The notes: generated by a model not told the origin, from the sequence alone. Shown: positions 42,443 through 58,790, numbered from the stretch's first letter. The stretch is 64,000 nucleotides of DNA from Bordetella parapertussis (GCA_945862265.1 CAMAXP010000002.1:96204-160203); one strand, 5' to 3'. Translations and numbers: made by a program.

Positions 42443-42444
42443 AT

Positions 42445-43613: not shown

Positions 43614-43703
43614 GGCTAACGTTTTGGTGAACGGCGTGCTGAGGTCGTCGCCCGCAATTTTGCACAGTGGCAGCCGGCCTGTCCGTTCCACCTGCAGTTA
43701 GCG
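43614..43703 (-). repeat. attC site
   Basis: GGCTAAC-GTTTTGGTGAACGGCG ... GTCCGTTCCACCTGCA-GTTAGCG with complementary arms. The ParE stop codon lies inside the GTTAGC box. Confidence 0.75.
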
Positions 43704-44006: not shown

Positions 44007-44230
44007 GAAGCCCGACGAACGCGGGCAAAGACCTCTTCTAAGGAAGACCCGGCGTCGGGATCGGACTCGTACTCCGCTAATCGCCGGTCAAGCTCTTCCT
44101 TCTGCCATTCGGTAAGCGCCAGGGCATCGGGGACGCAAGAGATGCTGTCCCAAATAGCCTCAACGAGATCCACACGTTCCTCCAAAGGAAGGGCGAGGAT
44201 CTCCGCCACCAGTTCATTTTTCATGTTCAT
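44003..44230 (-). CDS. addiction-module antitoxin (TIGR02574-like, ParE-associated)
   Basis: 75 aa. LVAEILALPLEERVDLVEAIWDSI...LTEWQKEELDRRLAEYESDP is the typical 'putative addiction module component' pattern. Confidence 0.75.
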   Translation of the reverse strand: MNMKNELVAEILALPLEERVDLVEAIWDSISCVPDALALTEWQKEELDRRLAEYESDPDAGSSLEEVFARVRRAS

Positions 44231-44255
44231 AGCGTAGCACGTTCGCCAATCTGCA

Positions 44256-44300
44256 CGCTAACGCCGGCCTTCAGCTGCAAGGCAATGTCGGGCGTTCTGG
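44256..44300 (-). repeat. attC site (short, degenerate)
   Basis: CGCTAAC-GCC ... GGC-GTTCTGG. The outer stem ACGCC/GGCGT and an inner CCTTCAGCTGCAAGG hairpin are visible. The right core deviates from GTTRRRY. Confidence 0.4.
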
Positions 44301-44314
44301 GCTCACTCGTGCAC

Positions 44315-45145: not shown

Positions 45146-45169
45146 TTGGGTCCTCCTGGTCGTATGCCA

Positions 45170-45260
45170 GCCCAACGTCGTGGTGAACGGCGGGTGCGTG
45201 TAGCGGTTCCGAAGAAGAACAGGACCACTTTCGCCCGTCCGTTCCACCTAAGTGTTAGGC
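45170..45260 (-). repeat. attC site
   Basis: GCCCAAC-GTCGTGGTGAACGGCGG ... CCCGTCCGTTCCACCTAAGT-GTTAGGC with complementary arms. Confidence 0.8.
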
Positions 45261-45273
45261 GCGAAATCAACAG

Positions 45274-45633
45274 TTACTCACGAATACGGACCCGTTCGGG
45301 TTCGATGATCCACAGCCGACCTCGTGTGGGCTCGGTCGCAAGCACCGGCAATGCCGACTTCAGCAAATCCAGGGTGTTCTCGACGCTCTGCGTGTGTGGG
45401 CGCAATACCCAGATGCCCGCGTGACTCGCCGGAGGATAGACACGGATATCGGAGAAATCGAGATCGAAGGTGACAAGGATCCGATCCTCCGCCTGAGAGG
45501 CGTCAAAGACGCGTGGATCGGGGTTGCCTCCCATCTGTTCGTCGAGGACCGTGTGCACGTCATGCCCCGGCTCACGCAGCAAGGCTTCCGCGTCACGAGG
45601 TAGATTCTCGTCAAGCTTGAACCGAGCAGGCAT
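45274..45633 (-). CDS. DUF5615-family PIN-like putative toxin
   Basis: 119 aa. FKLDENLPRDAEALL...ILVTFDLDF pattern (Mut7-C/PIN-like) downstream of a DUF433 gene. Confidence 0.7.
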   Translation of the reverse strand: MPARFKLDENLPRDAEALLREPGHDVHTVLDEQMGGNPDPRVFDASQAEDRILVTFDLDFSDIRVYPPASHAGIWVLRPHTQSVENTLDLLKSALPVLATEPTRGRLWIIEPERVRIRE

Positions 45634-45642
45634 CCTGCAAGA

Positions 45643-45870
45643 TTATGCGGGGATGGGAACGATGCGCTCTCGCGCCAAGTCTGCGGCATAGCTGATCGCC
45701 GCGGGAATATGTTCGGGCCGAAGCGAGGGGTACTGATCGAGAATGCGCTCCGGCGTTTCGCCGGCGGCGAGATTGTCGAGAACGACAGATACCGGTATTC
45801 GTGTGCCGCGGATGCACACTGCTCCGTGCATGATCTGGGGATCGGTCGTGACGTAAGGTTTCCAGTCCAT
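45643..45870 (-). CDS. DUF433-family putative antitoxin
   Basis: 75 aa. DPQIMHGAVCIRGTRIPVSVVLDNLAAGETPERILDQYPSL is the DUF433 signature. Confidence 0.75.
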   Translation of the reverse strand: MDWKPYVTTDPQIMHGAVCIRGTRIPVSVVLDNLAAGETPERILDQYPSLRPEHIPAAISYAADLARERIVPIPA

Positions 45871-45921
45871 CGCAGATGCCTCCGAATATGGCTTTCAATA
45901 TAGCACCGCGCGTTCCTACGT

Positions 45922-46008
45922 GCCTAACGTGTTGTTCTGCGGCGGGCCAGTTGGATGCCAGCATTCGCGAGGCGCCGATGGCCCGTCCGCAGCAACAAAG
46001 GGTTCGGT
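45922..46008 (-). repeat. attC site
   Basis: GCCTAAC-GTGTTGTTCTGCGGCGGGCC ... GGCCCGTCCGCAGCAACAAAGG-GTTCGGT with long complementary arms. Confidence 0.7.
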
Positions 46009-46026
46009 CCCAATGACACAAACATA

Positions 46027-46374
46027 CTACGCCGCTTGCAACAGGAACTCGACCTTCACAGCCTCAAACGGAAACACAATGCTGCCTTCTTCCGTGCGAT
46101 TGAGAACGCCAGCATTAAGCAGGGCGGTAACATCGCCATGAACAGCCTTTACGTCGCGGCCTACACGTCGTGCTGCTTCTCGTATGGAGACTGGACCCGC
46201 GCCGCACAGCGCCTTGAGTAGCTCCCAGCGCTTGGCGCTGAGCACTTTCCAAAGCAGCTCAGGGCTAGCAAAGCTTATACGCGCGGACTTTTGAGATTTC
46301 CCGGTCTTCCAGGATTGCACGAAATCAGACATTGAATCGGCCGGCGAACGCACATCAAGAGTTACGGTTTTCAT
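46027..46374 (-). CDS. HTH transcriptional regulator / antitoxin (TumA-like)
   Basis: 115 aa with a winged-HTH segment (RWELLKALCGAGPVSIREAARRVGRDVKAVHGDV). Overlaps the upstream DUF6516-like gene by 20 nt. Confidence 0.65.
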   Translation of the reverse strand: MKTVTLDVRSPADSMSDFVQSWKTGKSQKSARISFASPELLWKVLSAKRWELLKALCGAGPVSIREAARRVGRDVKAVHGDVTALLNAGVLNRTEEGSIVFPFEAVKVEFLLQAA

Positions 46375-46651
46375 TGTTCCACCTCGCTATGTCTCGTTGA
46401 AAATCAGCGACCAGCTGATCCGGTGTAGTGAACTTGTAGATACTCTCTTTGTCGCCGTAGTGCCTATGGTCACCTTTGCCAACTTCGTTGTCGTAGCGAA
46501 GGACGCACACATCACGCACCACGTAAGCTAGCCTGTACTTGAACCTGTGAGTGGAACCTGCAACAGGCTTCGGGACTTGCCAAAGCACCAACTCCGCGAA
46601 TGCTGCTTCTGAGTATGTGATTCGAGTACGGACAAGCTCGACAGCGTTCAT
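46355..46651 (-). CDS. DUF6516 / TumE-like putative toxin
   Basis: ATG at 46651 (alternative TTG at 46696). WQVPKPVAGSTHRFKYRLAYV...RYDNEVGKGDHRHY matches the pattern I associate with DUF6516. Confidence 0.6.
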   Translation of the reverse strand: MNAVELVRTRITYSEAAFAELVLWQVPKPVAGSTHRFKYRLAYVVRDVCVLRYDNEVGKGDHRHYGDKESIYKFTTPDQLVADFQRDIARWNNENRNS

Positions 46652-46880
46652 GTTGGAGACGATAACAACACAAGGCTTTGTTGTCAATAGCTCCAACGAT
46701 CACGAATGGGGTTATGTGGGGCCGAACTATATTTGGCTGAATTTTTTAGGTGAAAGTTTTCGTTGACACTCTGTGGACCCCGCTCATATCTCAGTTCGAG
46801 ATTCGTGCTCCGCAGTGTCATCCATCCTTGTCTTCAGCACGTTATGCCTGCTTGCCCGAAACCACGAGACCTCCGCAGAC

Positions 46881-47087
46881 ATGGCATCCCCCGGATCGCC
46901 GCCTTCCCCCAAGCCCCGTCTGCTCGATCGCGAGGCGGAGGTGACGGCGTTCCTCAACCACCTTGTGCGGACTCGCGACGTGGCGGCGGCGACGCAGAAC
47001 CAGGCGCTGCCGGAACGGCTCGCGCGGATGAGCGGGACGAATTGGCTGACGGGCTCGCTCCCATGCGGGATAATGGTGCTGCAATGA
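46881..47087 (+). pseudogene. intI: decayed integron integrase remnant (delta-intI)
   Basis: Translation ...[54 protein letters not shown] aligns with three separate pieces of the intact IntI (PPKLLEQ; [27 protein letters not shown]; [14 protein letters not shown]). DNA identity is visible (GAGGCGGAGGTGACGGC, GCGACGCAGAACCAGGCGCTG). All catalytic regions are missing. Confidence 0.7.
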
Positions 47088-48199
47088 GATCCCGACTTCT
47101 ACCGGCGCTGGTACTGGCGCTCGCTTGTGCGACTGCCGGCGCCCAGACCTACCGCTCCGACGAGCACAGCTTCACCGTTACCCGGGTCCTCTCCGGCCTC
47201 AGCCATCCCTGGGCGCTCGCATTCCTGCCGGACGGCCGCATGCTGGTGACCGAACGCGAAGGCCGCCTGCGCATCGCCCGGGACGGCAAGCTGGACCCGC
47301 AGCCGGTCGCAGGCCTGCCGCAGGTCGCGCCGCACGGCCAGGGCGGGCTGATGGACGTGGTTCTGCATCCGAATTACGCGCAGAACAACCTCGTCTACTG
47401 GACCTTTTCGGCGCGCGGGGCCGATGGTTTCGGCACCGAGGTGGCGCGCGGCAAGCTGGTGGGCAACCGCATCGAAGGCGCGGAGGTGATCTTTCGTCAG
47501 AGCCCGAAGGGCGCCACCGGCCGGCATTTCGGCTCGCGCCTCGTGTTCGGCCGGGCCGGGTTTCTCTACGTCACGCTCGGCGACCGCGGCGAGCAGGAGC
47601 GCGCGCAGAAGCCGGACGACCACGCCGGCTCGGTGATCCGGCTGCACGACGACGGCAAGCTGCCTAAAGACAATCCTTTCGTGGGCCAGGCCGGCTGGAA
47701 GCCGGAGAAGTTCACGCTCGGCAACCGCAACCAGCAGGGCGCGGCGCTGCACCCGGCGACCGGCGTGCTGTGGACCCACGAGCACGGCCCGCAGGGCGGC
47801 GACGAGGTGAACGTGATCCGCGCGGGAGCGAACTACGGCTGGCCGGTGATTACCTACGGCGTCAACTACGGCATCGGTACGAAGATCGGCGAGGGCACGC
47901 ACAAGGCCGGCATGGTGCAGCCGGTGCATACCTGGGTGCCCTCCATCGCGCCTTCGGGCATGGCGTTCTACACCGGCGACAGGTTTGCGCGCTGGAAGGG
48001 CGACCTGTTCGTCGGTGCGCTCAAGGACCAGATGCTGGTGCGCCTGAAGCTCGACGGTGAAAAGGTCGTGAAGGAAGAGCGCCTGCTGCGCGGCGTGATG
48101 GGCCGCATCCGGGACGTGAGGGCCGGGCCCGACGGCTACCTGTACCTGGTGACCGACGAGCCCAACGGTGGCGTCGCGAGACTCGAACCGGCAAACTGA
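47084..48199 (+). CDS. PQQ-dependent soluble sugar dehydrogenase (YliI/Asd family)
   Basis: ATG at 47084 overlaps the stop of the intI remnant frame. Signal MRSRLLPALVLALACATAGAQ. Beta-propeller motifs HPWALAFLPDGRMLVTER and HEHGPQGGDEVN. Host-like G+C. Confidence 0.8.
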   Translation: MRSRLLPALVLALACATAGAQTYRSDEHSFTVTRVLSGLSHPWALAFLPDGRMLVTEREGRLRIARDGKLDPQPVAGLPQVAPHGQGGLMDVVLHPNYAQNNLVYWTFSARGADGFGTEVARGKLVGNRIEGAEVIFRQSPKGATGRHFGSRLVFGRAGFLYVTLGDRGEQERAQKPDDHAGSVIRLHDDGKLPKDNPFVGQAGWKPEKFTLGNRNQQGAALHPATGVLWTHEHGPQGGDEVNVIRAGANYGWPVITYGVNYGIGTKIGEGTHKAGMVQPVHTWVPSIAPSGMAFYTGDRFARWKGDLFVGALKDQMLVRLKLDGEKVVKEERLLRGVMGRIRDVRAGPDGYLYLVTDEPNGGVARLEPAN

Positions 48200-48285
48200 G
48201 CAGGCATCATGGCGAAACACGTCCCTGCCGTAAAAGTCAAAGGCTCGGTGCGCGAACAAGGCCGGATCTGATTCCCCGCGTTTCG

Positions 48286-48372
48286 GCATAGCGCTTTGGT
48301 CTGCAGCGGGCCAGAACTGAATGTTGGTCCCGCGCGATGCGGGCTGCCCGTCCGCAGCACCTGTAGTTATGC
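48286..48372 (-). repeat. attC site (terminal, distal end of array 1)
   Basis: GCATAGC-GCTTTGGTCTGCAGCGGGCC ... GGGCTGCCCGTCCGCAGCACCTGTA-GTTATGC. The distal core reads GCTATGC on the cassette strand (GTT changed to GCT). The stop codon of the 48367 ORF lies in the core. Confidence 0.7.
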
Positions 48373-48690
48373 TTCAACACGAATCAGTTGCCCCGGTCGG
48401 ACGGCTGTGATCGCGGTCAACCCCGCCGGAACAAGAGGCAGCAGGTCCTCGAGGGCATTACTCGTAGCGCAGAGTACGACCACGCCAAGACGTCGCTTCG
48501 AGATGTTCTGCTGAAACTCAAGATTCTGATCGCCGGTCAAGAATACCGAGAACCCAGCGTTCTCGGCTTGGGTCAGCAATGCACCATTCTTGAGACCGGC
48601 CCACGATTCTTGGTGAACCGTACGAGCGTCGTGGCCGACCAAGTACGGCGCTAGCTGCCGAGGAAGCTGCTCATCAAGCAGAATGCGCAA
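48367..48690 (-). CDS. DUF5615-family PIN-like putative toxin
   Basis: 107 aa. MRILLDEQLPRQLAPYL...VFLTGDQNL. Second, divergent copy of this family in the region. Confidence 0.7.
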   Translation of the reverse strand: MRILLDEQLPRQLAPYLVGHDARTVHQESWAGLKNGALLTQAENAGFSVFLTGDQNLEFQQNISKRRLGVVVLCATSNALEDLLPLVPAGLTAITAVRPGQLIRVEA

Positions 48691-48907
48691 GATCGCTCAC
48701 GGCTTCGTGAGCAGCTTCCAATGACGCGACCGCTTGCTCTCGGGAAACACTTGGAAAGGAGTCGAGAAACTCGTCGAGACTGTGGTTTCGTTCGAGGTAG
48801 TCGATCAGATTGCGGAATGGAACGCGAGTCCCGACAAACACGGGCGTGCCTCCAAGAATATCCGGATCGCTGTGAACGCTGTGAACGACTGGCGCTGTGT
48901 TTGGCAT
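48674..48907 (-). CDS. DUF433-family putative antitoxin
   Basis: ATG at 48907. DPDILGGTPVFVGTRVPFRNLIDYLERNHSLDEFLDSFPSV. The upstream part of the ORF-track call runs into the attC. Confidence 0.75.
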   Translation of the reverse strand: MPNTAPVVHSVHSDPDILGGTPVFVGTRVPFRNLIDYLERNHSLDEFLDSFPSVSREQAVASLEAAHEAVSDLAHSA

Positions 48908-48952
48908 GTCGGTCCCTCTGTTCGTCAATTTTAGCTCATCGCCCGCGTTGAG

Positions 48953-49042
48953 GCATAACGCTGTGGTCAACGGCAGGCGCGCATGGTGGTCGATGAGAAA
49001 GTCATGGCCGCTTTCGCCTGTCCGTTGCGCCTAGAGTTATAC
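48953..49042 (-). repeat. attC site
   Basis: GCATAAC-GCTGTGGTCAACGGCAGG ... GGCCGCTTTCGCCTGTCCGTTGCGCCTAGA-GTTATAC. The right arm is nearly identical to the attC at 52410. Confidence 0.8.
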
Positions 49043-49322
49043 GTTGCGATTTTTCGGTGAGACGTCCGGTCACATACTTATGTAAGACGCTGGCAATCAG
49101 CGTTTGATAGGGAACACCCTCTTCAAGCGCTTTAACCTGTATGTCGCCAAGATCAATGGAAGACAACCGAATATTCACCCTGCGATCCTTAATTGCAGTG
49201 GCCCTTGCCGCGGTTTTTAGTTTTGCAAGCTCGCCCTTGGTGGCAATAGATTTGAGTTTGCCTTTTTCGTAGGCATCCAATACTTCTCTTTCGTAGGCAT
49301 CAAGTTTCGGCATTCGGATCAC
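49002..49322 (-). CDS. brnA: BrnA-type (CopG-like) antitoxin
   Basis: 106 aa. RRVNIRLSSIDLGDIQVKALEEGVPYQTLIASVLHKYVTG. The last ~13 codons are encoded by the attC. Confidence 0.75.
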   Translation of the reverse strand: MIRMPKLDAYEREVLDAYEKGKLKSIATKGELAKLKTAARATAIKDRRVNIRLSSIDLGDIQVKALEEGVPYQTLIASVLHKYVTGRLTEKSQRITLGATDRRKRP

Positions 49323-49593
49323 CCTTTATCAACCTCTCCCTCGTTGCCTTGCGGCTGGGAATCACGGTCTTCAGGAAGTAATAGTCGTCTTCCTCTACAT
49401 ACGGTACCAAGTACGCGTAGCCATCGATTGCAACTATCATGACTTTTTGACGCGGGTAGCGGGCCAGGTTTGGATGGTCTGTCATATCTAACAGGCCACC
49501 CGATTCGACGGCCACCACGACACGCTCGAAAGACATTCCTCGTTCCGCCTTGAGTGATTCGTTCTTTTCAGAATTCCAGCGAAACGGCTTCAT
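49300..49593 (-). CDS. brnT: BrnT-type (DUF497) toxin
   Basis: 97 aa. FRWNSEKNESLKAERGMSFERV...AYLVPYVEEDDYYFLKTVIPSRKATR. Overlaps brnA by 23 nt. Confidence 0.7.
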   Translation of the reverse strand: MKPFRWNSEKNESLKAERGMSFERVVVAVESGGLLDMTDHPNLARYPRQKVMIVAIDGYAYLVPYVEEDDYYFLKTVIPSRKATRERLIKGDPNAET

Positions 49594-49652
49594 TGGCTTA
49601 GCATAAACGACTGTGTGCCTTTTGTCACCACACTTGGCCGAAGCTTAGCAGC

Positions 49653-49739
49653 GTATAACGTGGAAACCACTGGCGCGCGTGCGCCGGTCGGCGATTTGCG
49701 CGGTAGCTCACGCGCGTCCGGTGCGTTGCCGGGTTATGC
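49653..49739 (-). repeat. attC site
   Basis: GTATAAC-GTGGAAACCACTGGCGCGCG ... CGCGCGTCCGGTGCGTTGCCGG-GTTATGC. The HicB stop lies in the core. Confidence 0.75.
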
Positions 49740-49946
49740 CGCAATATCGACGTACTCAACGCGACTTGCCGGTTGCGGAATAGCGATCCCATCTTCGCGC
49801 ATGCCGTCGAGATGGAATTCGATCGCTTCGCGGATTTGCGATTCCGCCTCCTCTACGGTGGCACCTGTCGCGACACACCCCGGAAGGTCGGGCACGTAAG
49901 CCGAGAAATTACCCTCGGCCTTCTCGATCACGATGGCATAGCGCAT
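49734..49946 (-). CDS. hicB: HicB-family antitoxin
   Basis: 70 aa. MRYAIVIEKAEGNFSAYVPDLPGCVATGATVEEA is the HicB/UPF0150 N-terminal domain. Confidence 0.85.
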   Translation of the reverse strand: MRYAIVIEKAEGNFSAYVPDLPGCVATGATVEEAESQIREAIEFHLDGMREDGIAIPQPASRVEYVDIAA

Positions 49947-49953
49947 GGGAGCC

Positions 49954-50142
49954 TCACTTCTTCAGACCAGACTGTTTCAGGATACTGTTTAGAGTGCCAG
50001 GTGCCAAGTCGTCGCTTGGCTTTCCCGGGACGGTGACACGGCCTGGCTTTGAAGAATGCTTGAATTGCCGGTGGCTGCCGCGTGTAGCCACCAGAAACCA
50101 GCCATCGTCACCAAGAATTCTCAGTATTTCGCTGACCTTCAT
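49954..50142 (-). CDS. hicA: HicA-family mRNA interferase toxin
   Basis: 62 aa. ILGDDGWFLVATRGSHRQFKHSSKPGRVTVPGK...LAPGTLNSILKQSGL. Confidence 0.85.
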   Translation of the reverse strand: MKVSEILRILGDDGWFLVATRGSHRQFKHSSKPGRVTVPGKPSDDLAPGTLNSILKQSGLKK

Positions 50143-50194
50143 GCAATCAGCATATCAAGGACCCGGTTTCTATGCCGGGAGAGCCAGCTTTGCG

Positions 50195-50284
50195 ACATAA
50201 CGTGGAGGCGTGCGGCGCGCCGCGATAACTGCTTGCCAACGGGACACTTGAGCCGGCGCGTCCGGCACCGCCGCCAGGTTATGT
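50195..50284 (-). repeat. attC site
   Basis: ACATAAC-GTGGAGGCGTGCGGCGCGCCG ... CCGGCGCGTCCGGCACCGCCGCCAG-GTTATGT. Confidence 0.75.
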
Positions 50285-50288
50285 GTCA

Positions 50289-50582
50289 TCAGAGTTGATA
50301 GCGGGTGATGTCGAGCGATCCGTGAAAGACACCGAGGACATCGATGTTTCCGTCGCCTTTGATGAGGTATGCGATTCGGTAGTGACCGTAGAGCAGTATT
50401 CGCACGTGTCGCGATGAGGCAGCGTAGCGGGAGCCGATTTCGGGAAATCTGGCGAGATCCTGCACCCGCTCGTAGATACCGAGAACCGTTCGCGTGGCCG
50501 CCTGAGGGTTTTCCGCCGCTACGTATTCAAAGATGTCTGTCAGCCAGCGCTGGGCCTCTTCGGTCCAGCTTATTTCTGCCAT
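50289..50582 (-). CDS. type II toxin, ParE/RelE family
   Basis: 97 aa. AQRWLTDIFEYVAAENPQAA...HYRIAYLIKGDGNIDVLGVFHGS. Confidence 0.8.
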   Translation of the reverse strand: MAEISWTEEAQRWLTDIFEYVAAENPQAATRTVLGIYERVQDLARFPEIGSRYAASSRHVRILLYGHYRIAYLIKGDGNIDVLGVFHGSLDITRYQL

Positions 50583-50755
50583 GACCGAATGCGGCGACCC
50601 ATTTCTTCGTTTGAGATGGTGCGTTTCGCGTCGGAGTCAGCGAGCCCGTTCTCGACCATGACGTGCAAGGCGAGCTCGCGCACGATTTCTTCGCGAGAAC
50701 TGTCCTCAGGCTGCCCTTGAATCAGGCGGGTGAGTTCTTCCTTTGCAGTAGCCAT
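50570..50755 (-). CDS. small acidic putative antitoxin (ParE-associated)
   Basis: 61 aa. Called from its position (13-nt overlap upstream of the ParE gene) and its size. I do not recognise the family. Confidence 0.55.
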   Translation of the reverse strand: MATAKEELTRLIQGQPEDSSREEIVRELALHVMVENGLADSDAKRTISNEEMGRRIRSWQK

Positions 50756-50811
50756 GACAACCTCCGATTTGAATGCAATTCTGCCTCAGTTTTTTGATCT
50801 GTGGGAATGAC

Positions 50812-50877
50812 ACATAACGTTCGCGTTGAGCGGCGCACCGCTTGTTGGTGCGTCCGGTCTCGAACGCGTCGTTAGAT
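50812..50877 (-). repeat. attC site
   Basis: ACATAAC-GTTCGCGTTGAGCGGCGCACC ... GGTGCGTCCGGTCTCGAACGCGTC-GTTAGAT, 66 bp with complementary arms. Confidence 0.7.
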
Positions 50878-50915
50878 GGCAGAAGGTGCATACATTCAGT
50901 CCTGTCAGTTCCGCC

Positions 50916-51587
50916 TCACTGTACTGGTCGCGGCACGGGCGGGTAGTACTGAGGTGCCTCACCGCGACTGAACATGCCGTAATCGCGCATCACCTCAAAC
51001 ACACGAAAGTACTCGGTCGTCGAATCGGCAAAAAGTTTCCGACCAAAGTCGACGCCGGCGTCAGATGACGGCACGTCAATAAGATGCGCAAAAACTCCGG
51101 GTCTGTAGACGCTCTCGAACACGTCACGTTTCCAGGGCGTTTCAACCGACAATTCTCGATTCCGAGATTCCGAGGCGACGACAAAAGTCGGTGGCCGCCT
51201 CTTGGGATCGTTGTACGGACTCAGTCGCTCGGGACGCCACGCCGATTTTTCGAGCCGCTCCTCATGGAGGACCTGTGCGATCCGAATGCGGTAGTCGTCG
51301 AAGACTTTCTCGCGGCCTGCTTCTTGAACCGCATGGTGCTTTGGATCGACCCGCCAAGCGATCATTGATCCCTCGTCCTGCCATATCTGATATGAGAGCA
51401 GGAGATTCTTGCGATTCAAGCTCTTGAACCGGTCGATGAATAGGCAGCCTCCCATGGCTTCCAGGGATGGTTTCAATGAAGCCGCGAGATCCAGATAGCG
51501 ATTGATCTGCCCTTCTTTTATTTGAACTTCGAAAAATTGCGAAATCAAGGCCGTTAGCACCTTATGAGATGGGCAGGAGGTCAACAA
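50916..51587 (-). CDS. cassette protein, tandem ABM-like (antibiotic biosynthesis monooxygenase / Dabb fold) domains; function unknown
   Basis: 223 aa. The first half (LISQFFEVQIKEGQINRYLD...YQIWQDEGSMIAWRVDPKHHAVQ) looks ABM-like, and the second half is of similar length. Start uncertain (TTG at 51587, no clear RBS). Confidence 0.55.
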   Translation of the reverse strand: MLTSCPSHKVLTALISQFFEVQIKEGQINRYLDLAASLKPSLEAMGGCLFIDRFKSLNRKNLLLSYQIWQDEGSMIAWRVDPKHHAVQEAGREKVFDDYRIRIAQVLHEERLEKSAWRPERLSPYNDPKRRPPTFVVASESRNRELSVETPWKRDVFESVYRPGVFAHLIDVPSSDAGVDFGRKLFADSTTEYFRVFEVMRDYGMFSRGEAPQYYPPVPRPVQ

Positions 51588-51631
51588 AAATGCCAGCGTG
51601 CCTCTTGAGAAGCGCCATTCCTACTATAGCC

Positions 51632-51718
51632 ATCTAACGTCTTGGTGAACGGCGGGCCAGCACTGTGGTTGAACAAGGTGTGACGCTTCCGGCCCGTCCG
51701 TTCCACCTGTAGTTGGGC
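51632..51718 (-). repeat. attC site
   Basis: ATCTAAC-GTCTTGGTGAACGGCGGGCC ... GGCCCGTCCGTTCCACCTGTA-GTTGGGC. Confidence 0.8.
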
Positions 51719-51728
51719 TTCACCCGGG

Positions 51729-52040
51729 CTACCGCTGCGGAACCAGTCGGATTTCGATATCGCACCCGACCGCCGCGGCATACTTCTTCAGGGAGGTCAG
51801 CGATGGGGCATGTTTGCCAGCTGATTCGAGACGCGATACCGCGCTCTTGGTCGTGCCCATGCGCGAGGCGACCACCTCTTGGGTGAGTCCGGCACGAGCG
51901 CGTGCAGCGAGCATTTGGTTCGCAACGGCGTATTCGACCGCAAGAGCTTCATAAGCGGCCTTGAATCCCCGGCGCTTGCTCGCTTTCTTAAGAAAGGCGT
52001 CGTGGTCGTGCCGAACGGGCTGGTACTTGAGTTCTGCCAT
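51729..52040 (-). CDS. XRE-family HTH antitoxin (HigA-like)
   Basis: 103 aa. HTH LTQEVVASRMGTTKSAVSRLE downstream of a gp49-like toxin. Confidence 0.8.
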   Translation of the reverse strand: MAELKYQPVRHDHDAFLKKASKRRGFKAAYEALAVEYAVANQMLAARARAGLTQEVVASRMGTTKSAVSRLESAGKHAPSLTSLKKYAAAVGCDIEIRLVPQR

Positions 52041-52359
52041 TTAGCACCTCTTTCATGCGTTTGCGAGCCAACTTCAGCTCTCGGTCTGGTGTTTGCCGTG
52101 CTTTCTTAATGAACGCGTGCAGCACCATGACGCGTTGGCCAACGAGAAAGCAATAGAACGCTCGTCCTATGCCCGACTTGCCCTTCGGTCTGAGTTCGAA
52201 GAGGCCATCTCCGAACGGACGCGAATGCGGAAGTCGCAGGTTCGGGCCGTGCTCCGTGAGAAGCTCAACAATCCTTGCATAGTCCGCGAGAACATCTGCG
52301 GCCCACGATTCGATCTCTGCAAGAACTTTCGGATGAAAGTATTCGATGGAGTACGGCAC
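51988..52359 (-). CDS. gp49-like RelE/HigB-family toxin
   Basis: GTG start. IEYFHPKVLAEIESW...LRLPHSRPFGDGLFELRPKGKSGIGRAFYCF...VLHAFIKK. The 3' end overlaps the antitoxin by 53 nt, so the C-terminal ~17 aa may be non-native. Confidence 0.75.
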   Translation of the reverse strand: MPYSIEYFHPKVLAEIESWAADVLADYARIVELLTEHGPNLRLPHSRPFGDGLFELRPKGKSGIGRAFYCFLVGQRVMVLHAFIKKARQTPDRELKLARKRMKEVLNGRTQVPARSARPRRLS

Positions 52360-52409
52360 GACGCGAGGTTCGCATATTTGAGAACACGGGTCAAGCGTTG
52401 AATGGTGAA

Positions 52410-52499
52410 GCCCAACGTCATGGTCAACGGCGGGCGGGTGACGCCGTTCGCGAAAAATTGAAGGCCGCTTTCGCCTGTCCGTTGCACCTATAGTTGGGC
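52410..52499 (-). repeat. attC site
   Basis: GCCCAAC-GTCATGGTCAACGGCGGGCGG ... GGCCGCTTTCGCCTGTCCGTTGCACCTATA-GTTGGGC. Confidence 0.8.
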
Positions 52500-52506
52500 A
52501 TCGTGA

Positions 52507-52806
52507 TTAGACGCGATTTGCTTGAGCATGAAGTTTCAAACCAAGCGCTCCGATTACCTTGAGGATGGTGTCAAAGCCGGGGCTACGCTCGCCTGAAAGT
52601 GCCTTGTATAAGCTTTCTCGGGACAGCCCGGCATCTCGAGCCACCTGTGACATACCTTTCGCGCGTGCTATATCACCGAGCGCTTTGGCAATAAATGCGG
52701 CATCACCATTTGCTTCTTCAAAGCAAGCTTCGAGATAGGCGGCCATTTCTTCCTGAGTTCTGAGATGCTCGGCGACATCGTAACGAGTCGTGGTTATTTT
52801 GGTCAT
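52507..52806 (-). CDS. addiction-module antidote protein (HigA family, TIGR02684-like)
   Basis: 99 aa. YDVAEHLRTQEEMAAYLEA...IARAKGMSQVARDAGLSRESLYKALSG. Confidence 0.85.
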   Translation of the reverse strand: MTKITTTRYDVAEHLRTQEEMAAYLEACFEEANGDAAFIAKALGDIARAKGMSQVARDAGLSRESLYKALSGERSPGFDTILKVIGALGLKLHAQANRV

Positions 52807-53109
52807 TTAGGTTTCTCCAAAAGGATGCGAGCAAACTGCAATGCTGCTTTGATATCTTTGGCCTGAGAGATTTTTGTCTCCTCCAGCCAGGAGGATGACC
52901 AATTCTTGGCCTCGTTTCTTGAAATACACTCGATAGCCGGGGCCATAATCTATTCGCATTTCCGAGACACCCTCTCCAACCGGCTCTACATCGCCGGGAT
53001 TGCCGGCGGCTAGTCGTTCAATGCGAGCTTGGACACAAGCTCTAGCTTGAATATCACGCAGACCATCGAGCCATTGGATGAATGCATCTGTTTTGCGAAC
53101 TTCGACCAT
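52807..53109 (-). CDS. addiction-module killer protein (TIGR02683-like RelE/HigB), apparently frameshifted near the 3' end
   Basis: FIQWLDGLRD...RIERLAAGNPGDVEPVGEGVSEMRIDYGPGYRVYFKKRG..LLAGGDK. After the A5 run (plus-strand T5 at 52871-52875) the family-like tail SQAKDIKAALQFARILLEKPK* lies in the -1 frame. That tail ends in the canonical ATGA overlap with the antidote gene. Confidence 0.7.
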   Translation of the reverse strand: MVEVRKTDAFIQWLDGLRDIQARACVQARIERLAAGNPGDVEPVGEGVSEMRIDYGPGYRVYFKKRGQELVILLAGGDKNLSGQRYQSSIAVCSHPFGET

Positions 53110-53168
53110 GGACGCACCGTATCCGCAAGGCTACACTCTGTCAAGCGTGCGAAGGCGGCTCCTAAGAT

Positions 53169-53225
53169 GCCCAACGTTCGAATTGTTCGGCGCCGGCAGG
53201 CGTCCGCACCAATGAATAGTTGGGC
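53169..53225 (-). repeat. attC site (short)
   Basis: GCCCAAC-GTTCGAATTGTTCGGCGCCGG ... CGTCCGCACCAATGAATA-GTTGGGC, 57 bp. Confidence 0.7.
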
Positions 53226-53249
53226 ATTGCTCCGGCGGAACTGGTCTGT

Positions 53250-53542
53250 TTACGCTCGCGCGCCGCCATAGCCCGGGCGCTTTCTGTCGTGCTTGACGAC
53301 CAAGACCTTAATCTCATCCGCACCGGTGCGATAGATCACAGTGTACGGAAAGATGCTCATCGAAAACCACGTCGGCCTTTGGTACGTGGTGATCCGATAC
53401 CCGGCTGTTCGATGAGGAGATCTGAAAGCCGCTTGAACTCGGCGACGAACCTTGCAGCCAGAACAGACGAACCCTCGCGCTCGTAGAACGCGGCAGCTTC
53501 ATGAATGTCTTGTTCAGCGCCTGGGTGAAGCGTGACCTTCAT
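53250..53542 (-). pseudogene. ParE/RelE-family toxin, frameshifted
   Basis: N-terminal 61 aa (MKVTLHPGAEQDIHEAAAFYE...GIGSPRTKGRRGF) then a stop. The conserved C-terminus SMSIFPYTVIYRTGADEIKVLVVKHDRKRPGYG* continues in another frame. One extra T in the T4 run (plus-strand A4 at 53363-53366) would restore the frame. Confidence 0.75.
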
Positions 53543-53766
53543 TCAGGGAAGCGCGCTTCCAATCTGGCAATAGCAACGTCGAGCGGCACTGACCGAACGG
53601 CGCCTGTTTCAAGCTCTTGTTCTCGCTTGTCCGCAAGGTCATCCCAGGCGGCCTCCGCGTCGCTGTCGACGTCGAGGCTTGCGATCAGTCGATCGAGGAG
53701 CCGCGCTCTGTCTGCCGGTGACAGACGCAGCACCTCGGCTTGCAGCGTTTCAAGCGTAGTTGACAT
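53539..53766 (-). CDS. addiction-module antitoxin (TIGR02574-like, ParE-associated)
   Basis: 75 aa. LQAEVLRLSPADRARLLDRLIASLD...AWDDLADKREQELETG. RBS AGGAGA. 4-nt overlap with the toxin. Confidence 0.75.
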   Translation of the reverse strand: MSTTLETLQAEVLRLSPADRARLLDRLIASLDVDSDAEAAWDDLADKREQELETGAVRSVPLDVAIARLEARFPE

Positions 53767-53844
53767 CCGTATCTCCTCAGTGTCCGCGTTCTTCGAAGAT
53801 CATAGCTTGCCACAAATCCGAAGTGCGCCTGCGGGGGTGACGAC

Positions 53845-54084
53845 GCCCAACGTGAAGTGGGTTGCCGAAAAACCGGAATGCGTTCCGTGGATTTGTAACT
53901 CATTTTGTCATCCCTTTGTAAGGTCGAGACGTTAGGCGCATTCCGGCATAAAAACGTTCTGTTATTCGGGCGAATGCGACTTTGCATTCCGCCAAGTTGC
54001 AACTGACTTTGTCATCGTTTTTTGGATTCAACGCGTTAAGCCTTCCGCAGCATTAAAAATACATGTTATTCGCGGAGGTGGATA
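53845..54084 (-). other. attI region (approximate) and intI / cassette promoter region
   Basis: The first cassette junction reads GTTGGGC on the cassette strand (plus-strand GCCCAAC at 53845-53851). Between it and the intI start is AT-richer DNA with repeated TTTGT(A/C)A motifs. No attC-like hairpin. Confidence 0.5.
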
Positions 54085-55119
54085 GTGTCGATTAAGGCAA
54101 TTCTTTCGGGTGCGGAACCGGCACGTCCCCCGAAGCTGCTGGAGCAGGTGCGCGACGCGATCCGGCGCAAGCACTACAGCCTGCGCACCGAGGACACGTA
54201 CTTCCACTGGATCAAGCGGTTCATTTACTTCCACAGCAAGCGCCACCCCCGGGATCTGGGCGAGGCGGAGGTGACGGCCTTCCTGAACGACCTGGCCAGG
54301 GTGCGGAACGTGGCGTCCGCGACGCAGAACCAGGCGCTGTCGGCGGTGTTGTTCCTATATAAGGAGGTGCTCCGCACGCCGCTGGCCTGGCTGGACGGCC
54401 TGGATCGGGCCAAGCGGCCGGTTCGGGTGCCGACCGTCCTGACGCAGGACGAAGTCCGCCGGCTTCTCGCTCGCATGGAAGGGACCAAATGGCTGATCGT
54501 GAGCTTGTTAAATGGGTCCGGGCTGCGGCTGCGTGAGTGCCTGAAGCTCCGGGTGAAGGACGTAGAGTTTTCGTACCGGCAGATCGTCGTGAGGGATGCT
54601 AAAGGCGCCAAGGACCGGGTGACGATGCTTCCTGAGTCGGTGATCGAGCCGCTCAGGGAGCACCTGGTCCGCGCGAAGGCGTTGCACGAGTCGGACCTTG
54701 CCAGCGGTCATGGTGATGTGGAGATGCCCTACGCCCTGGCGCGCAAGTACCCCAAGGCGGCCTACGAGTGGGGTTGGAAGTTCGTGTTCCCGTCACGCAA
54801 GCTTTCGGTCGATCCGAGGAGCGGCGTGGTGCGGCGGCATCACGTGTATGACGACGTGCTTGGGCGCGCAATCAAGCAGGCGGCGCGTGAGGCGGGGATC
54901 GCCAAGCACGTGAGTTCGCACACCCTGCGCCACTCCTTCGCCACTCACCTGCTGGAGTCCGGTTATGACATCCGCACGGTGCAGGAGCTGCTCGGCCACG
55001 CGAGCGTGGAGACGACAATGATCTATACGCATGTGATGAACAAGGGCGGGCGCGGGGTGCGCAGCCCGCTGGACCGCGTAGAGCAACCGCGGGCGGGGTA
55101 CGCTGGTGCCGGCGCCTAA
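54085..55119 (+). CDS. intI: integron integrase
   Basis: 344 aa, GTG start behind GGAGGTG. Tyrosine-recombinase residues ([25 protein letters not shown]) plus the IntI-specific extra segment [24 protein letters not shown]. Divergent from the cassette array. Confidence 0.9.
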
Positions 55120-56171
55120 CGCGGCGCATGCGCCAGCGTCCTCGAGGCGCGATGCCCGAACCTGTCCGCGATCCTTTCGATTTCCTCCGGTGAGAAAGCC
55201 AGGGGGCGTTTGCCGTAGGTCTGCAGGCAGACCCGGCTGAAATGGGCGGAATCCGTGAAGCCGCACCCGGCAGCGGCTTCCGAAATGGTTCTTCCGGCAG
55301 CCTGGATCTGCCACAAGCCGTAGTGCAGGCGCAGCGCGCGCGAGTAGGCCTGCAGCGTGATGCCGACTTCCTCTTTGAATACTCGCTGTAGCTGGCGCGC
55401 CGACACGCCCAAGCGGGACGCCACTTCGGTAACTTCCAGCGGGTGTGCGATGTTCTCCTCGAGGACGAGCATCGCCCTGCGAACACGTCCGGACTTTGCA
55501 AGCGTTGGTGCCGGTGGTTGGGGCTGTACGAACTTACCTTGCACCAGGAGCATGTCCGCACATTTCTGGGCCAGTGCATCACTGAGATAGCGCGCAACCA
55601 GCCAGATGCCGAATTGCGCCGCGGCAACCGCGCCCGCGCACGTGACATACCGTCCATCGACGATCAGGACCTGGTCCGTCTTGAACCGGACCTTCGGGAA
55701 CCGGTCGGCGAAATCCCGATACCTGAACCAGTGTACGCAGCAGGTCCTGCCGTCCATCAAGCCCGCCTGGATCAGCGGAAGAACTCCGGTGCCGATGCCG
55801 GCAACGATCTTTCCGTCGGAATCGGCTGCCTGGATGAAGGCGAGGGTGTCCGGCTGGATCGGTGGCTCCCGTTCGATCAAGCCCGCAATTACAACGACTG
55901 CATCGAAGCGCTCCGGGTTGCGGGGTTTGGCCGAAGGTGCGATCGGGATGCCCGAACTGGACATCACCGGGTCGGGCCCTTCAGCAAGGAATGTCCAGTC
56001 ACACCGTATCCGCTGGCTGGCGGCACCCTCATCTGCGGCAAAGCGGAGCGCGTCCACGATGGCCGCCAGTGCGGTAAGGGAGAAGTGGGGGCGTAGAAGG
56101 ATGCCGACCCGGAGCTTTTCCGGCGCGGAACGGGCTAGCGTCTTTTTTCGTGGCATGGCCGTTTTATACAT
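55116..56171 (-). CDS. GlxA-family transcriptional regulator (DJ-1/PfpI domain + AraC HTH)
   Basis: 351 aa (alternative ATG at 56156). N-terminal DJ-1/PfpI-like domain and C-terminal AraC HTH ([24 protein letters not shown]). Overlaps the intI 3' end by 4 nt, convergent. Confidence 0.8.
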
Positions 56172-56250
56172 CCCCTTTGGCGGGCTTGGCTATCTCCGCC
56201 GGCCGGGGGGCTGCGTAGAGTCCGGAGTTCCTTTCGGCCGGGAGTTCTTC

Positions 56251-57222
56251 ATGCTCATCCTTCGTCGCCGTGCACTTTGCGCGCTCCTTTTTGCCGGCCT
56301 GTGCCGGGTGGCCTTCGCACAGCCCGCTTTTCCGCCCCCGGCGGTGACGAGCGTAGTCCCATTGGGGCCCGGATCGGCCACCGATACCGTTGCCAGGATC
56401 TTTTCGCGACACCTTGCGGAAATGTGGAAAGTGCCTGTGACGGTCGAGAACCGGCCCGGAGCGAATGGCATCCCCGGGACGGCGGCCGTGGTACGAGCCC
56501 CCGGCGATGGCTCGACCCTCCTGTGGATTGCAAGCAACCACATCATCAACGAGAGCCTGTACAGCTCGCTGCCTTACAACGGCCTCAAGGACCTGCGGCC
56601 CATCGCGCAGGTCGGGATAGCGCCGCTGATCCTCGTAGTCCCCGCGTCCTCGCCGATAAACACCCTTCAGGACCTCATCAAACTGGCCAAGGCCCAGCCC
56701 GGCAAGCTGAACTACGGTTCCGCCGGTTCGGGCAGCACGACACACCTGGCCGGCGTAGTGCTGAAAGAGGCCGCCAGGATCGACATCGTCCATGTCCCGT
56801 ACAAGGCCATCGGCCAGGCGACGGCCGACCTGCTGGCCGGAACGCTCGACATGCTGTTCCTGTCGCCGCCCACCGCGATGTCCCATATCAAGTCCGGGAA
56901 ACTGAGGGCGATCGGGTCGGCCTCGAAGCAGCGGCTGGCCATCGCCCCAGACGTGATCTCGCTGAGCGAGGCCGGGCTTCCGGAGTTCGAGGTGCAGGCG
57001 ATCCTCGGCGTGGTCGCGCCCGCGTCCATGCCCGATGCGATCGCGGAGCGGATCTCCGCCGACATCAACCAGGTCGCGGGCCGGCCCGACGTGCAGCAGG
57101 CCGTCCTGCAGACCGGCCTCGTGGTCCGCCCGCTCCCGCTCAAGGACTTCGTGAATGTCGTCCGCCAGGAAAACGAGCTCTGGTCCCGTGTCATCAAGGC
57201 GTCCGGGGCGAAGGCGGACTGA
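56251..57222 (+). CDS. Bug-family (TctC-like) substrate-binding protein
   Basis: ATG at 56251. Signal MLILRRRALCALLFAGLCRVAFAQ and a Bug-family body (LNYGSAGSGSTTHL). Confidence 0.85.
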   Translation: MLILRRRALCALLFAGLCRVAFAQPAFPPPAVTSVVPLGPGSATDTVARIFSRHLAEMWKVPVTVENRPGANGIPGTAAVVRAPGDGSTLLWIASNHIINESLYSSLPYNGLKDLRPIAQVGIAPLILVVPASSPINTLQDLIKLAKAQPGKLNYGSAGSGSTTHLAGVVLKEAARIDIVHVPYKAIGQATADLLAGTLDMLFLSPPTAMSHIKSGKLRAIGSASKQRLAIAPDVISLSEAGLPEFEVQAILGVVAPASMPDAIAERISADINQVAGRPDVQQAVLQTGLVVRPLPLKDFVNVVRQENELWSRVIKASGAKAD

Positions 57223-57227
57223 GCCGC

Positions 57228-58685
57228 ATGCTGCGCCCAGCGAACCTCGTCTTCTTCGTTGGCGAAAGCCACGCGCGCACGCTCGTCGGTGCGTATGGAA
57301 ACCCGCAGATCCATACGCCGGCGCTGGACGCCTTGTGCGAACGCGGCACGTTGTTCCGCGAGAGTTATTGCAACAGCCCCATCTGCGTGCCGTCCAGGGC
57401 GAGCCTCGCGACCGGCCTGTACCCTCACCAGCACAAGTACTGGGAGAACTCCATCGCGCTGGACGGGCGCACGCCCACATGGATGAAGGACCTGCGGGAC
57501 AGCGGGTACCACGTGGCCGGCATCGGGAAGTTCCATTTCCGCAACGCGGAGGACGACAACGGATTCAGCGAGGAGATTCTCCCGATGCACCTTGCCGAGG
57601 GGCTGGGTGAACTCCTCGGCCTGTTGCGCAGTGAGGGCGCGGAACCGGTACGCCAAGGATTGTGGGATCTCTACACCAGGAAATGCGGCCCGGGGGACGA
57701 AACTGCCTACCAGGCCTACGACAAGCGGATCACCCAGCGCAGCATCGAGTGGATGCGCGAGCATGCCAACGACGAAAAGCCTTGGGCGCTGTGCATCCAC
57801 TACGTTTCGGCGCATGCGCCTTACACGGTTCCCCGGGACCTGCTCGACCTTTACCCGCTCGACAAGATCGAGCTGCCCAGGACGTTTTACAAGGAGCGGC
57901 GCCCGCATCATGCGGCGATCGAGCATCTGCGCACGATCCTCGCGCACGACGCGGAAGTCGATGAAGGGCTGGTGAAGTTGTTGACCGCGAGTTACTACGC
58001 CGCCATCACTTATCTCGACCGGGAGATCGGGCAAGTGCTCGATTACCTGGACGCCGTCGAAGTGTCCGACAAGACACGCGTGGTCTATACCGCAGACCAC
58101 GGCTACAGCAGCGGCAACCACTTCATCCTCGGGCTGTTCAACCTGTACGAGCACTCGGTCGGGGTGCCGCTGATCATGGCGGGCCCTGATATCCCGAAGG
58201 GCGGGCAGGTGAACCAGCTGGTGTCTCACGTGGACCTGCACCCAACCCTCCTGGACTCGTTTGGCGTTCCGGCCAGGGCGGGCCTTCCCGGACAATCGCT
58301 CTGGGCCGCCATGTACGGGGATGAGGATCTTGATCGACCGGCGTTCGCCGAGTATCACGCGCTCGGGTCCACGTCCGCCAGCTACATGTATCGACGCCGG
58401 CAGCACAAGCTGGTCCATCACGTGGGAATGGAGAGCCAGCTCTTCGATCTCTCGGTCGATCCCGACGAGGAACGCGACCTGGTGGCGCTGGGCGAGGGCG
58501 GCGATACGCTTGCCCGCCTGGAGGCGGAGCTCGGCAGTATCGTCTCGCCGGAGGCGACCGACATCGAGGCAAAGAACGCGCAGCGGGCGCGCATCCGGGA
58601 ACTCGGCGGGGCTGAGGCAGTCCTTGCCCGCCGCCGGGGATTCGTCTACTCCCCGCCGCCAGGCAAGGACTGGAAGAAATTCTGA
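57228..58685 (+). CDS. sulfatase-family hydrolase (Cys-type)
   Basis: ATG at 57228. Sulfatase signature SPICVPSRASLATGLYPHQH (CxPxR). No signal peptide seen. Confidence 0.8.
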   Translation: MLRPANLVFFVGESHARTLVGAYGNPQIHTPALDALCERGTLFRESYCNSPICVPSRASLATGLYPHQHKYWENSIALDGRTPTWMKDLRDSGYHVAGIGKFHFRNAEDDNGFSEEILPMHLAEGLGELLGLLRSEGAEPVRQGLWDLYTRKCGPGDETAYQAYDKRITQRSIEWMREHANDEKPWALCIHYVSAHAPYTVPRDLLDLYPLDKIELPRTFYKERRPHHAAIEHLRTILAHDAEVDEGLVKLLTASYYAAITYLDREIGQVLDYLDAVEVSDKTRVVYTADHGYSSGNHFILGLFNLYEHSVGVPLIMAGPDIPKGGQVNQLVSHVDLHPTLLDSFGVPARAGLPGQSLWAAMYGDEDLDRPAFAEYHALGSTSASYMYRRRQHKLVHHVGMESQLFDLSVDPDEERDLVALGEGGDTLARLEAELGSIVSPEATDIEAKNAQRARIRELGGAEAVLARRRGFVYSPPPGKDWKKF

Positions 58686-58790
58686 GTGCGGGCGGTCAGA
58701 CTCAGAAGCTGATTCTTAAGAATTTATTTAAAAAAACCGCGCTGGGACTGCCTCCCCGGGCAGTTTCGATATCGTTTCCGGTATAACTCT

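Follow-up and report, generated by a model that had tools for sequence, protein, structure and literature searches.

The window analysed here, i.e., the whole stretch of 64,000 nucleotides from Bordetella parapertussis (GCA_945862265.1 CAMAXP010000002.1:96204-160203), raises the question of what kind of integron it carries and whether that integron still works. Inspection of the sequence had suggested a complete sedentary chromosomal integron (SCI) at 48286-55119 with an integrase gene (intI), an attI site, and eight cassettes, and all coordinates of this original prediction were recovered when we applied open reading frame (ORF) calls, profile searches, and covariance models. However, the prediction had missed a second array at 41.6-46.7 kb, where the low G+C content continues to the left of a PQQ-dependent sugar dehydrogenase gene (GSDH; PQQ, pyrroloquinoline quinone). 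We conclude that the region from 41.6 to 55.1 kb very probably comprises two tandem integrons in the same orientation, i.e., the predicted integron A, which is structurally complete, and an older integron B with a decayed integrase.

The assignment of integron A begins with its integrase gene:

54085-55119, plus strand: intI_A, intact integron integrase gene, 344 aa (TIGR02249, Pfam, PDB 2A3V alignment)

This ORF is a full-length integron integrase. The family profile TIGR02249 scores 469.3 bits against it (cut-off 265) with profile positions 1-315 of 315 covered, Pfam detects the Phage_int_SAM_4 and Phage_integrase domains, and the VchIntIA structure (PDB 2A3V) matches residues 19-331 at E=2.9e-94, spanning the additional domain. 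Mapped from the latter alignment, the whole catalytic set is kept (R148, K173, H279, R282, H305, and Y314), as are the conserved W231, P244, H252, and H253 of the IntI-specific insertion. The claim that the ORF combines the R/HxxR/Y residues of tyrosine recombinases with a segment found only in IntI is thus confirmed by profile, alignment, and conserved residues alike, and the 21-aa segment that had been quoted for it corresponds to residues 217-237, inside the insertion. In IntI_A, R170 stands at the place of W157 of VchIntIA. The class 1-type model NF011946 reaches 383 bits, under its cut-off of 435, and identity amounts to 58% with the best plasmid-borne IntI and ~54% with IntI1. The 4-nt overlap of intI with the convergent regulator gene that had been described is found at 55116-55119 in the ORF calls.

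The second line of evidence comes from the attC sites. We built a covariance model (R1) from six long array A sites, with the sites at 53169 and 50812 held out and no array B site used, and scanned the whole 64-kb window without filters; a broader model (R2) was made from 70 such attC sites. All eight starts that had been proposed by eye (48286, 48953, 49653, 50195, 50812, 51632, 52410, and 53169) are exactly the start of a covariance-model match, and these sites of 57-90 nt lie within 5.9 kb on one strand. Both held-out sites are recovered by R1 (30.3 bits at 53169, 24.3 bits at 50812), as are four sites of array B (45170, 45922, 43614, and 42373). E-values range from 1e-19 to 7e-4, no R1 match outside the two arrays has E<0.03 in the 64 kb, and R2 finds exactly 12 sites in the window with no other at E<=1. 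The plus-strand R1 scores far exceed those on the minus strand. As a control, R1 was applied to 21 intI loci of other genomes that encode related IntI; although roughly half of the DNA scanned was downstream of intI, 57 of 57 hits fell upstream of it on the expected strand.

When folded as single-stranded DNA, the plus strand of each site forms a hairpin that is closed by the terminal 7-mers and has an internal unpaired spacer and bulges in the 3' arm. The 3' arm reads ..CG-T-CCGNNN-C-NNN-(4-5 nt)-GTTRRRY, i.e., a bulged T, a 6-bp stem, and a second bulge, and 3'-arm bulges with 6 bp between them are the geometry required for IntI1 (PMC5027507). The bottom, recombinogenic attC strand is the plus strand of the window. 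The consensus hairpin of the six long sites shows compensatory changes in 14 of 24 pairs. In the 70-site alignment, 91% of cells are paired, compared to 72% in column shuffles and 26-43% in slid controls, and 19 of 24 pairs covary with changes on both sides, a count that leans towards structure because the alignment was fitted to the model. The attC sites form two or three subtypes, and the initial description of their ends as RYYYAAC and GTTRRRY was too narrow: 3 of 8 sites match both strings literally, while the others are of RYRYAAC/GTTAYRY type and the last begins with GCATAGC. A strict search for RYYYAAC...GTTRRRY as attC finder (three of the eight sites plus chance pairs) was dropped, as was a relaxed palindrome-plus-fold scan that was swamped by noise in G+C-rich DNA; the covariance models were used instead. 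As a separate observation, the extrahelical base of the L box on the bottom strand is a C in at least 9 of the 12 window sites (e.g., 52484-52489), while the literature describes it as "usually a G" (PMC5027507). Across related Burkholderiales loci, the second-bulge position is C or G with the conserved T and the 6-bp spacing kept.

The cassettes of array A and their attC sites are as follows, listed from intI_A outward:

53175-53850, minus strand: cassette A1, antitoxin (53539-53766) and frameshifted ParE (53226-53542) (PF09720, PF05016)
53169-53225: attC of A1 (R1 30.3 bits, held-out; R2 43.5 bits)
52416-53174, minus strand: cassette A2, Gp49/HigB-like toxin (52807-53109) and HI1420-type antidote (52507-52806) (Pfam)
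52410-52499: attC of A2 (R1 83.6 bits)
51638-52415, minus strand: cassette A3, Gp49 toxin (51988-52359) and HTH_3 antitoxin (51729-52040) (Pfam)
51632-51718: attC of A3 (R1 85 bits)
50818-51637, minus strand: cassette A4, ABM-domain protein (50916-51587), the sole cassette of array A other than toxin-antitoxin (TA) pairs (PF03992)
50812-50877: attC of A4 (R1 24.3 bits, held-out; R2 46.5 bits; fold z-score -5.3)
50201-50817, minus strand: cassette A5, presumed antitoxin of 61 aa (50570-50755) and ParE (50289-50582) (PF05016)
50195-50284: attC of A5 (R1 72.1 bits)
49659-50200, minus strand: cassette A6, HicA (49954-50142) and HicB (49734-49946) (Pfam)
49653-49739: attC of A6 (R1 78.7 bits)
48959-49658, minus strand: cassette A7, BrnT (49300-49593) and CopG/BrnA-like antitoxin (49002-49322) (Pfam, below gathering score)
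48953-49042: attC of A7 (R1 82.7 bits)
48292-48958, minus strand: cassette A8, DUF433 (48674-48970) and DUF5615/PIN-like (48367-48690) proteins (Pfam)
48286-48372: terminal attC, of A8 (R1 72.7 bits; AAC mutated to AGC)

As had been noted, all cassette ORFs lie on the minus strand and diverge from intI, according to ORF calls and Pfam. The A4 protein of 223 aa carries its ABM domain at the N-terminus only and is poorly characterised. Sample ERR3719153 has an assembly gap exactly at A1, with contig L103 ending at window position 53307 and contig L084 starting at 53728, which suggests population heterogeneity.

Between the first cassette and intI_A lie the attachment site and a possible promoter:

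53851-53968, no strand assigned: attI_A, crossover A53850|C53851 in GCCCAAC (53845-53851), right limit approximate
54063-54091, minus strand: candidate Pc-like promoter TCGACA-17-TAACAT pointing into the array (consensus scan, 9/12 matches)

We aligned the DNA upstream of intI in the window with that of three genomes (L002, L001, and L003) whose IntI are 77-87% identical. Conservation starts at ..AAC|GTGAAGT, and the DNA to the left of 53851, i.e., the first cassette, is unrelated in each of the four genomes. Since homology begins at AAC|G in all four, the attI_A crossover was therefore set at 53850|53851. The segment 53845-53937 (GCCCAAC...GTTAGGC) had also been considered as a ninth attC or empty cassette and was rejected: both R1 and R2 are silent there, the fold z-score is -0.18, and the segment is conserved as attI. 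Besides this, the sequence TGTTATTCG occurs twice between attI_A and the intI start, at 53960-53968 and 54064-54072, 104 nt apart. Its first copy is invariant in the four genomes, its second overlaps the -10 element of the Pc-like candidate, and L001 is without the DNA between the copies. The repeat may be an accessory binding site for IntI or a regulator.

With an IntI that has the additional domain, at least one attC, and an attI, integron A would classify as complete in the sense of IntegronFinder, which defines a "complete integron" as an IntI accompanied by one or more attC sites (Cury et al. 2016, PMC4889954). By analogy with known systems, IntI_A would bind the folded attC bottom strand, i.e., the window's plus strand, through the R box, the spacer, the bulged T, and the second bulge 6 bp away, and would cleave the AAC triplet at its A|C step. 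Cassettes would then be excised by attC x attC recombination and inserted at attI by attI x attC recombination.

The flanks of integron A had been described as host-like and visibly richer in G+C than the array, and the values agree with this (0.67-0.69 compared to 0.556). The gene identities named for them also stand: on one side a PQQ dehydrogenase (PF07995, GSDH), on the other a GlxA-type regulator with DJ-1/PfpI and AraC domains. However, the dehydrogenase is not the outer flank as had been thought, since array B lies beyond it:

41644-46726, minus strand: array B of orphaned cassettes, seven gene units, G+C 0.556 (attC models, Pfam)
45922-46008: attC of array B (R1 51.7 bits)
45170-45260: attC of array B (R1 59.8 bits)
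43614-43703: attC of array B (R1 49.2 bits)
42373-42442: attC of array B (R1 23.7 bits, R2 38.4 bits)
~44254-44297 and ~43029-43115: probable decayed attC sites of array B (scored by neither model)
46727-46815, no strand assigned: attI_B, crossover GCCGAA|C, 46726|46727
46816-47070, plus strand: delta-intI_B, integrase remnant of ~250 nt that keeps the promoter region and ATG 46881
47084-48199, plus strand: GSDH, PQQ-dependent sugar dehydrogenase, host-like and not a cassette (PF07995, 457 bits; G+C 0.686)

The cassettes of array B encode TumE with HVO_A0114, DUF433 with DUF5615, a SAM (S-adenosylmethionine) methyltransferase, an antitoxin with ParE, a GFA protein, a 180-aa protein, and an antitoxin with PemK/MazF. 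Three segments (~43029-43116, ~44252-44316, and 41640-41745) were tried as further attC sites. They folded poorly and were hit by no model, so that we list them as no more than probable decayed sites. A VOC/glyoxalase gene (41240-41632) was rejected as last cassette on grounds of its host-like G+C content, the lack of room for an attC before the next gene, and its conservation as flank in L027, a related genome in which the integrase lineage of integron B is intact. Within the array, the 180-aa protein (42445-42987, minus strand) is rich in Ala and Gly with a hydrophobic C-terminal half and has no Pfam match. In the PemK/MazF cassette, the antitoxin start is immediately preceded by a perfect palindrome, GTATAAC-ACCG-GTTATAC (42331-42348), which is shaped like two R boxes separated by 4 nt and is probably the operator of this TA pair.

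Integron B can be recognized by its own platform. Homology with the attI/promoter region of L027 (9586-9794, 82%) begins at 46726|46727 and marks attI_B. Next to it, 46857-47013 aligns with intI_A codons ~28-86 at a local alignment score of 125, compared to 27 +/- 4 for shuffles, with weaker collinear intI pieces on both sides, and a BLASTP match of the remnant covers 32 aa at 75% identity (E=7e-11). Segments of the remnant are 82-91% identical at the nucleotide level to the intact intI and attI/promoter region of L027. Compared to L027, the remnant is shortened by three in-frame deletions (105, 9, and 3 nt) and by another of ~120 nt. It ends before the first catalytic arginine, and no catalytic residues are left. 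Since the integrase remnant, another attI, and some seven cassettes lie to the left of GSDH, the accessory region measures ~13.5 kb and holds two integron platforms. Integron B (41644-47070) possesses its own attI and about seven cassettes, but its integrase is lost and its cassettes could be mobile only in trans.

Could both arrays instead be one integron of 12-15 cassettes into which GSDH and an integrase-like fragment were inserted later? The attC sites of both arrays belong to one family, and the nearest ones (48286 in A, 46008 in B) are 2.3 kb apart on the same strand, with the arrays themselves 1.6 kb apart. IntegronFinder clusters attC sites within 4 kb (PMC4889954), and at 2.3 kb on one strand such distance-based clustering would therefore merge the arrays. 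We nevertheless judge a single integron very unlikely. At its head, array B has a separate attI together with the promoter and start codon of an integrase that belongs to another lineage, all of them orthologous to the intact platform of L027. The remnant is ~80% identical to intI_A at the nucleotide level over 85 bp, yet it is identical to the IntI of L024 at 25 of 25 aa, and array B is invariant among strains where array A varies. We likewise rejected the idea that the two integrons arose by recent tandem duplication, because the remnant belongs to another IntI lineage. Two tandem integrons of different ancestry thus account best for these platforms, and array B, with four attC sites (42373-46008) and an integrase reduced to a remnant, would classify as a cluster of attC sites lacking an integron integrase (CALIN) with a neighbouring intI pseudogene.

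The remnant also touches the gene that separates the two arrays. Its 68-codon ORF (46881-47087) remains open despite the three deletions that preserve the frame, and its end overlaps the start of GSDH as ATGA (47084-47087). GSDH has only ~14 nt of upstream sequence of its own, and it may be expressed from the former intI_B promoter. The idea that the remnant is a functional mini-protein or conserved leader is weakened by a further out-of-frame deletion of ~80 nt in strain contig L089, which has no such ORF. GSDH adjoins array B in all strains seen, and a search of 80 related loci for GSDH next to an integron gave no match.

Whether integron A recombines can be judged from natural variants. Strain contigs, obtained by exact-protein look-ups, come from other samples and have flanks that are 97-99% identical. 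In L087, L088, L089, and L091, array B is kept in the same order at 98-99% identity; with the remnant and GSDH, it forms a collinear stretch that is invariant but for the remnant deletion in L089. On the side of array A, the HicAB cassette (A6, 98% identical) is terminal in L087 and L091 and joined directly to the flank, with A7 and A8 (48292-49658) absent, and the cassettes beyond HicAB differ from those of the window. In L089, the terminal cassette encodes a dienelactone hydrolase (DLH), and R2 scores its short attC at 34 bits. All three terminal junctions fall at one half-site, which reads GCATAA|C in L087 and L089 and GCATAG|C in the window. IntI-mediated recombination leaves just such breakpoints, precisely where cleavage occurs. 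Cassettes are also shared with a more distant array: at 66-526 and 2272-3434, L002 has counterparts of A7 at 93% and of A6 and A5 at 82%, the latter two adjacent and in the same order. Its IntI is 83% identical to IntI_A, its flanks are unrelated, and the rest of its array consists mostly of non-TA genes of unknown function.

Several observations weigh against the view that a complete and working integron A stands beside integron B. The terminal attC of array A (48286-48292) reads GCATAGC, with the AAC cleavage triplet changed to AGC, a change that could lock the distal end of the array. The ParE of A1 is split by a frameshift near 53357, with the N-terminal 61 aa in one frame and the C-terminal half (...FPYTVIYRTGADEIKVLVVKHDRKRPGYGGARA*) in another, next to an intact antitoxin. 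The Pc-like candidate amounts to a 9/12 match to the sigma-70 consensus and is only partly conserved in L002, where its -35 element has not been kept. No LexA box (CTGT-N8-ACAG, up to one mismatch) was found near intI, and their count across the window is below chance. In array B, two expected attC sites and the terminal site were detected by neither R1 nor R2. Finally, DNA of 98% identity borders the varying segments of array A, with HicAB and GSDH to the one side and GlxA to the other, a pattern that allelic replacement would leave. This last point, together with the mutated terminal AAC and the frameshifted first-cassette toxin, fits an integron A that is complete but no longer recombines, in which strain differences arose by homologous recombination or horizontal exchange of array segments. 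An array with TA pairs in seven of eight cassettes should moreover be costly to shuffle (PMC13108822), and arrays still differ among sister strains that are without the integrase at this locus. We consider such a fossil unlikely, though less so than a single merged integron: the intI_A ORF is uninterrupted with every catalytic and attC-contacting residue conserved, and both the A7+A8 indel and the DLH variant have their ends precisely at A|C, where cleavage occurs, rather than just anywhere in similar attC sequence. IntI_A is presumably active today. Junctions between strains at RYYYAA|C and the cassettes in common with L002 lend indirect support to IntI-catalysed excision and insertion of cassettes.

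Comparison beyond these strains reveals that whole platforms differ as well. Six contigs (L092-L097) carry the GlxA regulator at 99% identity with flanks at 97-98%, and homology stops at window position 55134. They are without intI_A beside GlxA and have 11 codons of a B-lineage integrase and a B-lineage attI there (e.g., L097 3862-9366). Their arrays contain 4HBT thioesterase, PNPOx, HigB/HTH, SHOCT, DUF433/DUF5615, BrnTA, HicAB, and further cassettes, all of which have an attC. The regulator gene differs between strains in its final five codons (AHAPR* in the window, RREEK* in L092-L097), so these are encoded by platform DNA. In the more distantly related L098 (91.5% nucleotide identity), GlxA adjoins the 3' end of intI_A, which is also the arrangement in the window. 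Since L092-L097 carry another platform beside GlxA, the integron platform at this locus is therefore polymorphic.

L027 shares three homologies with the window, namely the VOC glyoxalase gene, which in L027 lies ~6.8 kb from a small array; the 5' region of attI_B/intI_B; and window 58719-62170, at 82.7% over 3.5 kb, which resumes 25 nt past the L027 integrase stop. Window 47062-58718 (11.7 kb) stands where L027 (10160-10797) has the last two-thirds of intI_B. This block contains GSDH, integron A, the GlxA regulator, TctC, and a sulfatase, and its part from GlxA to the sulfatase (55116-58685) has a G+C content of 0.645. The difference would reflect either an insertion in the window's lineage or a deletion in L027. 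A more far-reaching picture, in which the locus is a hotspot that exchanges whole integron platforms, the intI_B remnant perhaps serves as a GSDH leader, and IntI_A perhaps services the orphan array, strikes us as tentative and rather doubtful as a whole.

How well does the label "sedentary chromosomal" fit integron A? The setting supports it. As had been stated, no transposition genes are nearby, and we called no transposase or other mobility gene, and likewise no relaxase or replication gene, within ~10 kb on either side. The contig of 171 kb carries metabolic and housekeeping genes such as HflX, and no close plasmid-borne IntI was found, although a megaplasmid location of the contig is possible. 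The content of the arrays points in the same direction, with type II TA pairs by Pfam in 7/8 cassettes of array A and 4/7 of array B, i.e., 11/15 overall (73%). This density far exceeds that of V. cholerae (19/179) and is also above that of the relative L002. It agrees with the view of TA cassettes as a trait of chromosomal integrons, with one TA cassette in 1423 plasmid mobile integrons (PMC13108822). On the other hand, the array is small (8 attC in A, 12 confident sites over both arrays), while large arrays are defined by >19 attC (PMC4889954) or >10 attC (PMC13108822). The integron is also not universal at the locus, with intI_A present there in L098 and absent in L092-L097. The label is therefore partly supported, i.e., it fits on context and content and not on array size or universality.

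Two observations would suit a mobile integron on a transposon, plasmid, or genomic island. The 11.7-kb block with integron A (47062-58718) replaces the 3' part of intI_B relative to L027, and the closest IntI relatives (L001 and L002) are found in different genomic contexts. However, the absence of mobility, relaxase, and replication genes from the called genes nearby, the housekeeping genes on the contig, an IntI_A that is at most 58% identical to plasmid-borne IntI and scores 383 against the NF011946 cut-off of 435, and the near absence of TA cassettes from plasmid-borne mobile integrons (PMC13108822) make this extremely unlikely. An assignment to mobile classes 1-5 finds no support in the NF011946 score, the ~54% identity to IntI1, or the gene neighbourhood.

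Vibrio and Xanthomonas have supplied most of what is known about integrons that are not part of clinical mobile elements. Integron A resembles the chromosomal integrons of environmental Proteobacteria, with VchIntIA and the bottom strand of the Vibrio cholerae repeat (VCR) as reference (2A3V), in its divergent arrangement of intI, attI, and array, in the additional IntI domain that contacts extrahelical bases, in attC sites with an R box, an unpaired spacer, two bulges 6 bp apart opposite AAC, and a variable loop, and in cassettes that are lower in G+C than the host and include TA pairs. It differs in having 8 attC instead of tens to hundreds, two or three attC subtypes instead of one homogeneous family, and, compared to V. 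cholerae, 73% instead of ~10% TA cassettes (19/179). Further differences are that the L-box bulge is mostly C, that R170 replaces W157 of VchIntIA, and that no LexA box was found. Class 1 mobile integrons (IntI1/attI1/59-base element) share the recombination chemistry and the attC architecture; the attC of aadA7 presumably has the same order of stem, T bulge, 6-bp stem, bulge, 3-bp stem, spacer, and R box. In contrast to class 1, integron A has an integrase that is ~54% identical to IntI1 at the amino acid level, has no Tn402/sul1 context and no resistance cassettes, and has an array dominated by TA pairs.

CALINs with a neighbouring intI pseudogene are known as well (15/279; Cury et al. 2016, PMC4889954). 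Array B is like them in its at least four attC sites, the lack of a working integrase, the recognisable intI pseudogene beside it, and the co-occurrence with a complete integron by which the cassettes of array B might be moved. It is unlike them in lying 2.3 kb from that integron in the same orientation and in that its pseudogene stems from a different IntI lineage than the intact neighbour; the remnant is also too short for the published pseudogene test (>50% profile coverage). An integron plus a CALIN with an intI pseudogene is a configuration described before and not a new kind of system. What the locus adds is a well-resolved example from the Burkholderiales of a working-looking integron adjoining one without integrase, with variants that differ by whole cassettes and with TA-saturated arrays. 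Its interest lies in tandem intact and decayed platforms of two lineages, in natural variants that are exact to the cassette, and in the platform polymorphism.

This makes the locus a natural test case for two ideas. The first is that TA cassettes freeze arrays by "cassette loss killing": TA pairs have promoters of their own and penalise the loss of their cassette, and they presumably stabilise the arrays here. The second is that an integrase can draw cassettes from an adjacent orphan array that belongs to a different lineage, and IntI_A can presumably act on array B. It also holds a practical warning in that distance-based attC clustering would report a single 12-cassette integron here.

Further to the left, outside both integrons, a small islet (36851-37393) with a 98-aa HTH_3 ORF lies between genes for an FMN (flavin mononucleotide) dehydrogenase and a cyclic-nucleotide-gated channel. 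It is present in the window and in L088 and absent from L087 and L090.

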